IMG/VR virus record: IMGVR_UViG_2706794688_000003
Source: a virus
Taxonomy: Duplodnaviria > Heunggongvirae > Uroviricota > Caudoviricetes
DNA: 4,429 nucleotides
Strand: one strand, 5' to 3'
The stretch's first letter is position 1. Each line of letters opens with the position of its first letter. Shown here in pieces: positions 1 through 4,429 of this stretch. Below the pieces are notes generated by a model. The model was not told the origin of the DNA. It searched no databases and worked only from the letters and a program-made list of their open reading frames with translations. The translations under genes and the position numbers were made by a program.

Positions 1-13
1 GTCCAATGTGCAT

Positions 14-48
14 AAAAAAATCCGGAAACAAGTGAGCGTTTCCGGATT
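14..48 (-). terminator. Rho-independent terminator downstream of the portal gene
   Basis: Minus-strand RNA would read AAUCCGGAAAC-GCUCACUU-GUUUCCGGAUU followed by a U-run (7 T in the DNA, of which the first two can pair in the stem). That is a 9-11 bp stem with a GC core and an 8-nt loop, about 30 nt after the portal stop. Confidence 0.6.
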
Positions 49-80
49 CTTACACAGCCACTGGATCGGTCAACTGATCC

Positions 81-1328
81 TTAACTGATCGGCATTACAC
101 CACCGGGACGCGGATTCATATCTTCCAGGTCGCGGCAGTCATTGGAAGAGTAAATTCCCCAGTTGATCCCGGTGGCGTAGGCTTCAAAACGGGACTTCAT
201 ATCCCCGCGCAGTAACGCCCCGGCGTTAAATTTGGCGTAATAAACGCCCTGCTTACTTTTTCGTACCAGTCCGGTGTTGATCCGCTGTTCGATGCGGGTC
301 AGATACGGCACCAGTGAATAGTTGATAAATCCCAGCCCCAGCTCTTCGATATTGTTGAAGGTGGCGCGATCGGTGTTCTGCACCATGTGCAACGGCACCC
401 GGAACAGACGACAGATTTCTTCCAGCTGAAACTTGCGGGTTTCCAGGAACTGACTGTCCTCGGCGTTCAGCGCCATCGACTTCCAGTCCAGCCCCATTTC
501 CAGAATCATCGGGCGGTGAGCATTGCCAAGCCCCGTGTGACACTCCTCAAAATCTTTCTTCAGACGCTCGTAAGCATCCGGCGTGAGCTTTTGTTCCGTA
601 CGCAACACACCGGATGTCACCGCACCATTACTAAACAACCTGGCACCGTGCTCCTCGGTTGCCGCTGCCAGTGAAATGGCCTCACGCGCATACGCAATGG
701 GATTCAGCCCGACAAGTCCATCCAGCGTCAGGGTGCGCACATGCCAGATTTCATTCTGGGTCAACACATCCACGGAACCATCCGGAAACGTCACCTGATA
801 AACCGGCTGCCACTGGCTGTTCAGCTTCGGTTCCACACAGCCCGGATCTATCGGAAGAAGCTCCACCACTTCTCCCAGTGCCTTTACCTTGTAGGCGTAA
901 AAATTCCCCCGTAGACACAGGCAGACAATAACCAGCTCCCAGAATTCCTGCGGTGTCATGTAGCCATTAGGTTTTGCCGAAACCAACTTATGCAGTCGTT
1001 CATCCACCGCCCGTGTTTTCAGGGTACCGCTGATTTTGTAGAGACTGCAGGGCAGCATACCAACAGACTCTGCCAGCACCCTGACGCAAGAATAGACCGC
1101 CGTCAGGCGCATGGCCCGCTGGCTACTGATCCGCTTTCCGGTATAGGTGTCGTATGACAGCCCGATAGCATCAGCAGTTCTGCTGGCGTGGTCACCGGCA
1201 CATCGCTTTTTCGTTGAAATAATCCCGAAAAGAACACTATTTACCTCCGCCGACAGACTGCCGTGTACGGTCGAGATATCGCGCCACCAGCCACGACCAG
1301 AACAGGCACAGCGCCCCGGCAACAACAA
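81..1328 (-). CDS. Phage portal protein, HK97 family; the 5' end and start codon are uncertain, with a possible frameshift near the N-terminus
   Basis: Long minus-strand ORF with portal-typical motifs ([72 protein letters not shown]). The listed ORF starts at TTG, not ATG, and overlaps the upstream 60-aa gene by 92 nt. The first in-frame ATG is at 1112. A better-placed GTG at 1237 is in a different frame. Stop TAA at 81-83. Confidence 0.85.
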
Positions 1329-1419
1329 AACCCGCCGGGGGATAAATCAGCCAGGCACCATACGCCAGCAAAAGCGCACCCAGCACGCCCACCAGAGGCG
1401 CGAGAATCAGCATGATCAT
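1237..1419 (-). CDS. ymfR: Small two-helix membrane protein between terminase and portal; probably YmfR-like (e14 prophage)
   Basis: 60-aa [63 protein letters not shown] with an ATG start and a good SD, lying 11 nt after the terL stop. It has two hydrophobic helices followed by a basic tail. Its stop (TAG 1239-1237) overlaps a GTG that looks like the true portal start. The ymfR assignment rests on my recollection that E. coli K-12 e14 carries a 60-aa ymfR between its terminase and portal remnants, and I have not verified the sequence. Confidence 0.6.
1244..1248 (-). promoter_or_regulatory. Shine-Dalgarno (GGAGG) in front of a candidate GTG start for the portal gene
   Basis: Minus strand reads GGAGGTAAATAGTG; GGAGG is 6 nt upstream of the GTG at 1237-1235, which overlaps the upstream gene's TAG stop. 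Confidence 0.45.
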
Positions 1420-1423
1420 AATT

Positions 1424-1428
1424 ACCTC
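1424..1428 (-). promoter_or_regulatory. Shine-Dalgarno (GAGGT) for the small membrane-protein gene
   Basis: Minus strand reads CTGAGGTAATTATGATCATG; the SD sits 4-5 nt upstream of the ATG at 1419. Confidence 0.5.
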
Positions 1429-1430
1429 AG

Positions 1431-3164
1431 TTAAAGCGAGCGGATCCCGTAGGACTCAATGTGGTCAGACAGCGTGTCTTCTTTCTCGTACAGCATGGCT
1501 CTGCCAACCGCCATAATCAGCGCAACTGCACCATCGATTTTGTTTTCCGCCTGCTCTTTGACGGGTTTCACCACATCATCGTTACCCGGCATGTTTTTGC
1601 CGACCACGTTGCCGATACACCAGGTCATGATGGGATTGCCGTCATGATGAAAACGTCCCGATTCAATCGCTGCTTCCAGCTCTTTCATCGGATCGGACAT
1701 ATTGGTGAAGTTCTGGACGATAGTGACGGGATTCAGGTCTTCATCAGCAAGGTCATGTGACAACCCGGTCGCCCCGAAGGGGTCGATGGGTGACTCACTG
1801 ACCGGGCTGATTTTGTTCGCCGCTTTGGCCTCCTCGAGGATGTAGCGATAATCCACCTCCGCACCATCGGTAACGGTCAGAACGCCCATTTCCACCCATT
1901 TCTGAAAGCGTTCGGCTGTCCGTCGATCTTCATTTTTCTCGACGCTGTACACCGTGTCATACGGTACCCAGAAACGCGGGGCCACACTGTAGTAATGCGT
2001 TTTACCGTCAATCTCGCGGGTATAAAGTCGCGCCATGCTGTTCATATCCAGCTTACGCGCCAGGTCAAAGGCCAGAATGCACGGCTGCCCCTCGAACTGC
2101 TCAAGGGTCAGTGATTTATCCTCGCAGCTCTGCCAGCTCACCAAGTTGAAATACGCCGAACGCGCCGACACCCAGATATTGAGGTGTTTTGTTTTAAAGA
2201 CGTTTGCCAGACGGGCGTTATTTTTCGCACGCTGCTGCTGACTTAACAAAAATTCGCGATAAACCGACACGCCAATATTTGGATTGGCTTTTTCCAGCAC
2301 CTGCGGGCCGGTCCAGTCGTCACCTTCATCAACGGTATAGATGATCCCGAACAGTTCATCGTTAGGCACCGAGCCGTTGAGCATCTCGATGACTTCCCGC
2401 CGCTTGTCGTAGCACGGCCCCTCAATGTTGTACCCGGCGGTGGTGATGGCCCACATCAGTGGCTGACGTCGCGCCCCCATCCCGGTAAGCATTGTGGTAT
2501 AAAGCGCATCGGTGGCATGCTCGTGATATTCATCAACCACGGCACAGTGGGGTGATGAACCATCACCTGGGTTGCCGATCAGCGGTTCAAACCGCGCGCC
2601 ATCCTCCGGACGGTTCATGTTTGAGGCGTTAACCTCAATCCCGAACGCTTCCGTCAGCATGGGTGTGCGTTTACACATCAGTCGCGCCGGGCGAAAGACT
2701 TCCCACGCCTGTTTCTCTGTCGTGGCACCGGAATACACTTCCGCGCCAAACTCGTTATCACAGGCAAAACAATACAGGGCAACACCGGCAGAGATTGCTG
2801 ATTTGCCGTTCTTACGGGGGATTTCGGTGTACACCTCCCGGAAGCGGCGCAACCGGGTGCCTTTATTGACCCAGCCAAACGCACAGCAGATCACAAATAG
2901 CTGCCACGGCTCCAGCGTGATGGGCATCCGTTTGAATGCCCACTCCCCCTTGGTGTGCGGCAACAGCTGAATAAATTTCGCGGCCCGTTCAGCCAGGTCC
3001 TTGTCGAAGCGGTAACGAAACGACTTACTTTTTTCCGCCATCAGGTCATCAAGATGGCGCTGGCAGGCCTGAATCACAAACTGGCAGGCAACAATCTTTC
3101 CGCGCACGACATCCCGGGCATACTGATTTGCAGCATTTACGTTGGGGTAAGATTTCCGGCTCAT
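1431..3164 (-). CDS. Terminase large subunit (Terminase_1 / HK97-like type)
   Basis: 577-aa ORF with an ATG start at 3164-3162 in an ATGA overlap with the terS stop. It has a Walker-A-like EIPRKNGKS motif in the N-terminal ATPase domain and a C-terminal nuclease-like region. Position after HNH and terS and before the portal is canonical. Stop TAA at 1431-1433. Confidence 0.93.
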
Positions 3165-3543
3165 GATTCGATAATTTTCAGAAACGGGTTAGTGGCTTTC
3201 TTCTGCCCCGCCAGGCCAATCAGACGCTGGCGGCTGCTGGGGTCGAGTCCGAGCATTGCCCCCGTGCTGCTCATCTCGGACTCCTGTTCTTTTTTGGCGG
3301 TCAGCTCCGGATTTTTGACCCTGCCGCCCATTGCACCGGTGATGGTGTTGCCCTGTATGGCAATATTTTTCACGGCACGTCGCCAGAACTCATAGGCCAC
3401 GCACCACCGCTCAAGTACCGCCAGGTCAGTCACGCACAGCAGGCCCTGACCGCAGAGTTCTTTGGTTGTCAGTTGCCACATGATCGTGGCGAGAGGGAGA
3501 TCTTCTTCAGCGAACCACTCTGGTGGCTCAACACCTTTGATGG
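3161..3543 (-). CDS. Terminase small subunit (P27 family / Terminase_4-like); 5' end lost in the N run
   Basis: The visible C-terminal 127 aa ([126 protein letters not shown]) match the P27-family pattern P.W...A...W..L...L...D...L..YC, NPEL and GL.PSSR.RL. Stop TGA at 3161-3163 overlaps the terL ATG. The family is usually about 150-170 aa, so the start should lie in the gap. Confidence 0.8.
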
Positions 3544-3788
3544 NNNNNNNNNNNNNNNNNNNNNNNNNNNNNNNNNNNNNNNNNNNNNNNNNNNNNNNNN
3601 NNNNNNNNNNNNNNNNNNNNNNNNNNNNNNNNNNNNNNNNNNNNNNNNNNNNNNNNNNNNNNNNNNNNNNNNNNNNNNNNNNNNNNNNNNNNNNNNNNNN
3701 NNNNNNNNNNNNNNNNNNNNNNNNNNNNNNNNNNNNNNNNNNNNNNNNNNNNNNNNNNNNNNNNNNNNNNNNNNNNNNNNNNNNNNNN
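3544..3788. other. Run of 245 N (assembly or scaffold gap, or masked sequence)
   Basis: Continuous n characters from 3544 to 3788. The six-frame track translates them as X, fusing two unrelated genes into one 287-aa ORF. Confidence 0.99.
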
Positions 3789-4024
3789 TTCGCCTCGCTC
3801 ACCACACCGACACGCAGACACAACTGACACAGACCTTTATCGCGCTTCAGAATACGGGCACGAATCACCGTCCATTTTGAGCCATAGCCACGCTGGTGGC
3901 GGCTCAGTCCGCGCTGGTGCTGCACCCAGCCTTCACCGCGATGTTTATCGCAGTAACCCGAACTGTCTGTGGTTGTACCTGCACATCCACGCTTACGGCA
4001 GGCACGTGGGATTAGTGATGGCAT
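3789..4024 (-). CDS. Phage HNH endonuclease, terminase-associated; 3' end lost in the N run
   Basis: ATG at 4024 with a GAGG RBS. N-terminal 78 aa MPSLIPRACRKRGCAGTTTDSSGYCDKHRGEGWVQHQRGLSRHQRGYGSKWTVIRARILKRDKGLCQLCLRVGVVSEA has a Cys-rich zinc-binding N-terminus and the RGYGS.W...R..IL.RD..LCQ.C pattern that precedes the catalytic HNH motif in phage HNH nucleases. The catalytic motif itself would fall inside the Ns. Confidence 0.78.
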
Positions 4025-4066: not shown

Positions 4067-4429
4067 CTACTTAATGCACTGAGTGCGGATATACTCCTGT
4101 GCCCCTTCCAGTTGCATCTGCATCGTCATCAGCCGCTCTCTGAGGGTGAAATAATCCCGTTCAGCGGTGTCTGCCAGTCGGGGGCTGGTTGCATTATCCA
4201 CGCCGGAGGCGGTGGTGGCTTCACGCACTGACTGACAGACTGCTTTGATGTGCAACCGACGACGACCAGCGGCAACATCAGCGCGCAGAGTTTCATTTTC
4301 AGCTTTCGCATCAGCTAACTCCTTCGTGTATTTAGCATCGAGTGCATTAACATCACGCTGTCTCTGCTGCATGTCAGTAATGGTTGCGTTCGCCAGCTTC
4401 AGTTCTCTTGCGTTTTTGTCGCGCTGCTC
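4067..4429 (-). CDS. Rz: Rz i-spanin (lysis protein), 5'-partial: the reading frame runs open to the window edge
   Basis: Minus-strand translation ...[120 protein letters not shown] is near-identical to phage lambda Rz as I recall it. The frame stays open upstream of the ATG at 4372 to position 4429, so the real N-terminus lies outside the window. Stop TAG at 4067-4069. Confidence 0.9.
4129..4311 (-). CDS. Rz1: Rz1 o-spanin, outer-membrane lipoprotein, fully embedded in the +1 frame of Rz
   Basis: 60-aa [63 protein letters not shown] with an ATG start. It has a signal peptide plus lipobox (LVVVG-C), a penta-proline stretch, and close similarity to lambda Rz1, and it lies wholly inside Rz in another frame. 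Confidence 0.85.

Follow-up and report, generated by a model that had tools for sequence, protein, structure and literature searches.

In phage lambda, gene W sits between gene A, encoding the large terminase subunit (TerL), and gene B, encoding the portal protein, and its product, the head-tail joining protein gpW, is soluble. HK97 gp15 and T4 Imm are small inner-membrane phage proteins that serve as precedents for a role in superinfection exclusion, gp15 being encoded inside the structural operon. A third point of comparison is T4 gp40, a small phage membrane protein that helps to initiate the head at its portal vertex, is tied to portal function and is the only documented case of membrane-assisted initiation of the portal and prohead (PMC3185693; T4 gene 40 annotation); T4 requires a membrane protein that contacts the connector, and in no other phage has the prohead been shown to associate with the membrane (PMC3185693). 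Here, we analysed a 4,429-nt stretch of viral DNA (IMG/VR record IMGVR_UViG_2706794688_000003, Caudoviricetes; the whole stretch is called the window below) in which a small open reading frame (ORF) of 60 codons plus a TAG stop (positions 1237..1419) lies between the terL and portal genes, all genes of the window being on the minus strand. It is practically certain that this ORF is the Shigella copy of ymfR. The gene looks like a fixed part of a head and packaging module with the order (HNH)-terS-terL-ymfR-portal-protease-capsid and not like a classical moron, and we consider it probable that this statement and the identity hold jointly. By analogy to T4 gp40, YmfR may assist, from within the membrane, in the assembly of the portal or procapsid or in DNA packaging, a tentative reading to which we assign a probability of roughly 30%.

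Compared to lambda, the ORF occupies the same slot as W, but the products differ, as gpW is soluble whereas YmfR is almost wholly hydrophobic and had no Pfam match, gpW included. The GenBank records ON470603, ON470584, ON470580 and PQ793804 name a YmfR homolog ‘head-tail joining protein W’; we rejected this label, which is apparently a positional mis-annotation of a membrane hairpin without a gpW match. A first-pass annotation of the window had taken terL and portal genes to be normally adjacent, which is true of HK97, phi1026b and other phages but does not stand as a rule, since lambda carries W between A and B.

The terL gene (1431..3164, minus strand; 577 aa) is intact and was assigned by the Pfam domains TerL_ATPase (8.2e-26) and TerL_nuclease (4.2e-33) and by the RefSeq labels of its homologs. 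Between its TAA stop (1433-1431) and the ymfR ATG (1419-1417) lies an 11-nt spacer, CTGAGGTAATT (1420-1430), which is identical in the E. coli homolog; a Shine-Dalgarno sequence, GAGG (1425..1428, minus strand), can be read 5 nt before the ATG. At the other end of the gene, G1237 is common to the ymfR TAG (1239-1237) and the portal GTG (1237-1235), giving the overlap TAGTG, and the portal ribosome-binding site, GGAGG (1244..1248, minus strand), is found in the sequence within the last ymfR codons (Gly-Gly-Gly-Lys). These coordinates agree with the first-pass description of an ORF that starts 11 nt past the terL stop, has its own Shine-Dalgarno sequence and ends in an overlap with the portal GTG. 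In the alignment of enterobacterial YmfR proteins, the C-terminal Gly-Gly (window 1241-1249) represents the sole invariant residues of an otherwise variable tail, and their conservation is probably a nucleotide-level constraint set by the downstream portal gene, because their codons form the portal GGAGG.

The coding sequence itself was assigned from the ORF list, a match to PHROG 502, an exact match to Shigella YmfR, an AlphaFold2 model and the ratio of nonsynonymous to synonymous substitution rates (dN/dS). The window protein is identical to the RefSeq entries ‘protein YmfR [Shigella sonnei]’ and ‘MULTISPECIES: protein YmfR [Shigella]’, and its 90%-identity cluster includes E. coli K-12 YMFR_ECOLI, which confirms the correspondence to ymfR of prophage e14 that had been suspected in the first pass. 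Residues 1-55 matched PHROG 502 (‘membrane protein’) with an E value of 2.8e-28, and the same PHROG was matched by all of 64 diverse relatives. Both the gene and the family are therefore already catalogued, as ymfR in RefSeq and UniProt and as PHROG 502, respectively. A 351-nt query across the ORF found matches in 1,363 of 5,426 complete E. coli genomes, the match covering 80% or more of the query in 1,341, and the RefSeq order in the E. coli rows shown was terminase large subunit, ymfR (or hypothetical protein) and phage portal protein. Among cultured phages, phiP27 (L37), ST64B (sb3), SfI, SfII, SfIV and 118970_sal3 carry ymfR, annotated as a (putative integral) membrane protein.

The K-12 e14 protein belongs to the same family, has the same length (60 aa) and is encoded in the same slot, with the 11-nt spacer and the TAGTG overlap, and the DNA of the e14 locus is 96.5% identical to the window, with few substitutions. 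The two loci differ in their state of decay: in e14, terL and the portal gene are both truncated pseudogenes, whereas in the window terL is intact and the portal gene is frameshifted and cut by IS4. In K-12, ymfR was upregulated by about 4.5 log2 units alongside other e14 genes under an SOS-inducing drug (PMC10012262).

Scans of Pfam, NCBIfam and PADLOC returned no family for the window protein or for the 64 relatives. Against Pfam, the window protein gave only weak membrane-protein noise and the relatives gave only scattered weak matches at E ≤ 0.01, holin families being included in the search. A profile search of PDB sequences gave one chance match (E 0.27), and a Foldseek search of PDB with the AlphaFold2 model gave nothing significant. 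The best Foldseek match, at a non-significant E value of 5.6, was the small hairpin subunit of a type III secretion export gate (7agx chain 1L).

The first-pass prediction of two hydrophobic helices followed by a basic C-terminal tail was confirmed. About 80% of the YmfR sequence is hydrophobic helix, and the C-terminal tail carries four Lys/Arg residues versus one Asp. AlphaFold2, run with a 23-sequence alignment, placed the helices at residues 2-25 and 27-57 with a break at Tyr26/Pro27 (mean predicted local distance difference test score 72.5). Among 48 distinct enterobacterial alleles, the mean pairwise dN/dS was 0.27 for codons 1-48, which encode the hairpin, and 0.71 for the tail, values that are indicative only, as the allele pairs are not independent.

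With a profile of 23 enterobacterial sequences, a search of 1.84 billion representative proteins identified 409 clusters (at 50% identity) with E ≤ 0.001, almost all of them 50-80 residues long. Common to the family is a turn motif, YGAW-x2-Y-x-PAG, that joins the two helices, within the overall pattern (R)D-L-x-G-L-A-G-x-x-L-(I/V)-S-Y-G-A-W-L-(I/V)-Y-x-P-A-G-(F/Y)-I-V-x-G-x-L-L-L ... A-R. Per-position conservation reached 92-100% for Gly, 89% for Trp, 82% for Tyr and 89% for Pro. Family members have short, Gly- and Ala-rich helices of about 16-17 residues. In 160 members, the median number of Lys/Arg residues was two before helix 1, two after helix 2 and about 0.15 in the five-residue turn. 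Because of this distribution and the positive-inside rule, we infer that both ends of YmfR would be cytoplasmic and the YxPAG turn periplasmic, with the hairpin in the inner membrane. Five of the top 150 representatives (P0157, P0178, P0184, P0216 and P0267) are tandem duplications with two hairpins, and hence four helices, per chain (102-122 aa); the occurrence of such fusions suggests that single hairpins normally pack against one another as oligomers.

Outside of enterobacteria, members of PHROG 502 such as gp30 of Azospirillum phage Cd share the two-helix hairpin, the YGAW..YxPAG turn and the overlap with a PF04860 portal gene, but have a basic N-terminal extension of 10-30 residues and an Asp that opens helix 1. 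In contrast, enterobacterial YmfR begins at helix 1 itself and has Pro8 where the other members have Asp. We also considered the N-terminal ‘MIM’ as a dual start of the holin type and rejected it, as the extra charge is absent and relatives start with MIL or MFL.

Conservation of the gene order was evaluated at two distances. In IMG/VR, ymfR was found in each of the 79 close relatives of the window portal with upstream sequence. For distant relatives, loci were chosen by a degenerate DNA pattern of the turn motif alone, which excluded the enterobacterial YPPAG variant and yielded 36 IMG/VR loci and six loci from bacterial genomes (titled Castellaniella, Halopseudomonas, a gammaproteobacterial metagenome-assembled genome (MAG), a Rhizobiaceae MAG, an Alcaligenaceae MAG and a MAG labelled Mycobacterium). 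In 31 of 31 motif-selected loci, the hairpin gene was followed by a large ORF for a Phage_portal (PF04860) protein, and the large ORF before it was terL in 26 of 28 (24 of the PF03354/PF20441 type and two Terminase_3). All six bacterial genome loci had the order terL, hairpin gene, portal. About 23 loci had a 1-nt overlap (TGATG or TAATG) of the small-ORF stop with the portal ATG, four had a 4-nt overlap (ATGA), and in most loci the terL stop overlapped the start of the small ORF or was found within about 15 nt of it. Azospirillum phage Cd has the order HNH, terS (P27 family), terL, membrane protein, portal, protease and capsid, also with a 1-nt overlap. Overall, the overlapping order terL, small ORF, portal is kept in phages of alpha-, beta- and gammaproteobacteria. 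The ORF is thus conserved together with its flanks and is not just the portal 5′ end seen in another frame. The PHROG match, the exact YmfR match, the dN/dS values and the distant conservation of motif and gene order all support the earlier claim that it is a real gene coupled to both neighbours.

The member in the MAG labelled Mycobacterium sp. (locus L123, 4259-4510) was matched with an E value of 2.5e-7 and lies between terL and the portal gene; this points to a broader host range or, alternatively, to an error in binning. In Vibrio phage K270 (locus L129, 1731-1934), a divergent hypothetical 67-aa hairpin ORF, also with two helices, occupies the slot between terL and portal and gave a weak match to the family profile (E value 0.0045 against a small local set). 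The family may reach beyond the 409 clusters.

The first-pass annotation had proposed that the gene could be a moron, which our results do not support. Neither a promoter-like nor a terminator-like site was found on the minus strand between positions 900 and 1900. The G+C content at third codon positions (GC3) of ymfR is 0.67, compared to 0.65 in terL and the portal gene, and its higher overall G+C content (0.61 versus 0.54 in the flanks) is due to its Gly, Ala and Leu codons. Presence/absence variation was not seen among the 79 close relatives, and the one partial E. coli match that was examined is a deletion remnant and not a precise loss; the gene was missing only from distant lineages of portals. 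Coupled junctions, no promoter or terminator of its own, normal composition and no variation, together with an order kept across proteobacterial classes, point to a member of the late structural operon rather than a classical moron. Rather than a stray accessory gene, ymfR appears to be an old and strongly conserved partner of one major portal family, to which it is coupled in translation. The constancy of the portal as neighbour holds at the family level only. The idea that ymfR travels with the portal gene rather than with terL was rejected at the allele level, where recombination joints were found on both sides: window-like ymfR alleles are combined with terL genes of 96% or 41% identity and with portal genes of 99% or 83% identity.

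We tentatively favour an assembly or packaging role for YmfR, which rests on analogy and not on homology to T4 gp40. In this proposal, ymfR would be translated alongside terL and the portal gene, in comparable amounts, late in infection or after induction; the protein would insert in the inner membrane in the orientation given above, with the YxPAG turn facing the periplasm, and the hairpins would pack together as oligomers. More specifically, YmfR might act at the inner membrane to nucleate or position the rings of HK97-type portals or the packaging complex, a version that we hold to be a little more doubtful than the general proposal. If an assembly role is true, membrane-assisted head initiation, documented only for T4 gp40, would be widespread in temperate phages of Proteobacteria, and a gap would be closed in a head module that is very common in prophages of E. 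coli, Shigella and Salmonella.

Several observations weigh against this proposal. T4 gp40 has no similarity to YmfR (hhalign probability 0.2%); the two also differ in that gp40 has 114 aa, is encoded far from the portal gene 20, and belongs with a portal of a different family. The conserved part of YmfR is the predicted membrane hairpin with its periplasmic turn and not a cytoplasmic surface; in enterobacterial YmfR, the sole cytoplasmic segment is predicted to be the variable tail of 12-13 residues, and since this tail is short and variable, little surface would be available for specific contact with the cytoplasmic portal or TerL. The ymfR alleles mix with different terL and portal types and show no allele-specific co-adaptation. 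A distinctive N-terminus of the portals encoded behind ymfR was considered and dropped, because the hydrophobic start (MGFL.. or MFFSGLF..) is also found in portals of phages without ymfR. Such phages also assemble related portals: with portals 29-41% identical, HK97, phi1026b (Burkholderia), Pseudomonas phi2, Pantoea AH07, a Bradyrhizobium phage and a Lachnospiraceae phage lack the gene, and in phages without it terL and portal abut or have unrelated genes between them. As HK97 and several others do without ymfR, the gene can in principle be dispensed with. The pattern of absence nevertheless speaks, provisionally, for a module gene and not for a moron: a rough neighbour-joining tree grouped the six ymfR-negative portals in one clade, a provisional result given n = 6 and positives picked by motif, which fits a gene inherited vertically with the portal for a long time and rarely gained or lost. 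The stable order could also reflect the general stability of head modules alone. Finally, literature searches identified no study of YmfR function, location or partners, in line with the first-pass remark that no function was known to its author; in the literature searched, mentions of ymfR were confined to lists of e14 deletions and a single transcriptome table.

An alternative explanation, raised in the first pass and considered unlikely by us, is an exclusion or host-interaction function, in which the inner-membrane hairpin blocks entry of superinfecting DNA or alters a host membrane function, as do HK97 gp15 or T4 Imm. YmfR resembles gp15 in being, by prediction, a small inner-membrane protein of a structural operon, the PHROGs category of phrog_502 is ‘moron, auxiliary metabolic gene and host takeover’, some phages with related portals lack the gene, and a conserved part that is predicted to be intramembrane and periplasmic fits binding of a host membrane protein. 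However, the features expected of a moron (own promoter and terminator, odd composition, presence/absence variation among close relatives) were not seen, and with its tight coupling to late genes ymfR should not be made in a quiescent lysogen. Blocks of DNA entry are usually specific to route and host, whereas ymfR is linked to the portal gene, and not to tail or tape-measure genes, from Azospirillum to Shigella. PADLOC gave no matches and there is no similarity to T4 Imm (hhalign probability 0.3%). It could also be argued that ymfR is intact in two decayed prophages, that of the window and K-12 e14, but in a decayed prophage a gene as short as 183 nt is expected to survive by chance.

A role in lysis timing or membrane permeabilisation, with oligomers that form small holes or modulate the holin and so tie the start of packaging to lysis, is in our view rather improbable. 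Class II holins and pinholins are precedents, and lysis genes are embedded in packaging or structural genes in T7, where they lie among the terminase genes, and in P2, where lysA and lysB lie in the late structural operon. The 160 members analysed for charge have the predicted layout of a class II holin (two transmembrane helices, cytoplasmic ends and a charged C-terminus), a generic and not a diagnostic likeness; Gly/Ala-rich helices and tandem fusions point to oligomers, and an Rz/Rz1 pair lies just upstream of HNH-terS-terL in the window. On the other hand, the Pfam holin families were unmatched by the 64 members beyond the weak matches described above, and the helices are short, at about 16-17 residues. 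The same prophages have a complete holin-endolysin-spanin cassette elsewhere, and the neighbour of the hairpin gene was the portal in all 31 loci and never an endolysin. If a lysis or exclusion role is true, YmfR would represent a new class of small proteins for that role.

Very improbable, in comparison, is a spacer ORF that serves solely, through coupling, to set translation of the portal gene relative to that of terL, the peptide being irrelevant. Stop and start overlaps on both sides in most loci, and a portal ribosome-binding site inside the last codons, would be in agreement with such a role, but a specific amino-acid motif is kept across lineages with saturated synonymous sites, the hairpin has a dN/dS of 0.27, and phages without the ORF overlap terL and portal directly. 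That the ORF is spurious, a chance frame or the portal 5′ end in another frame, is refuted by the data: although an ORF at 81..1328 covers the 3′ half of ymfR and antisense ORFs overlap it too, the former overlap is due only to a 1-nt deletion, the start codon of intact portal genes is the GTG or ATG in overlap with the end of ymfR, the Pfam portal domain begins well downstream, and the family-wide conservation argues for coding. The remaining probability goes to some other function.

The prophage in the window is defective. The portal 5′ end (1103..1237, minus strand), identified by alignment to an intact E. coli homolog and from the ORF list, starts at the GTG at 1237-1235 and forms a 44-codon frame that ends at a stop at 1105-1103. 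Compared to intact homologs, including that of phage phiP27, 1 nt is deleted between positions 1176 and 1175, at about codon 21-22, and the same deletion is found in four IMG/VR contigs identical in sequence to the window (L004-L007). Because of this deletion, the body of the HK97-type portal pseudogene (84..1175, minus strand; PF04860, 3.3e-107) continues in a shifted frame, and the long ORF at 81..1328 that overlaps ymfR is an artefact. The C-terminal 30 or so residues of the portal are missing, the corresponding codons being replaced by the end of an IS4-family element (1..97), as window positions 1-110 match IS4 ends in 2,591 E. coli genomes. Homology to intact portals and prophages starts at about position 98, and the related IMG/VR contigs end in the stretch 1-97. 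The IS4 element and the exact YmfR match fit a decayed prophage of the Shigella type. With a portal gene that is frameshifted and cut by IS4, ymfR is probably a relic here, and its coupling to the portal gene reflects an inherited architecture and not a working arrangement.

Upstream of terL, a run of 245 N (3544-3788) covers the 5′ end of terS, the cos region and the 3′ end of the HNH gene, and results in an artificial 287-aa ORF (3161..4024) that fuses the HNH endonuclease to the P27-family small terminase. Adjoining the HNH gene is a spanin pair of the Rz/Rz1 type (4067-4372 and 4129-4311, minus strand), with the lipoprotein-like ORF in another frame of the Rz-like ORF. In this spanin region, the E. 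coli homolog (L001) is longer by about 0.9 kb, which includes the lipoprotein gene iss (serum survival).

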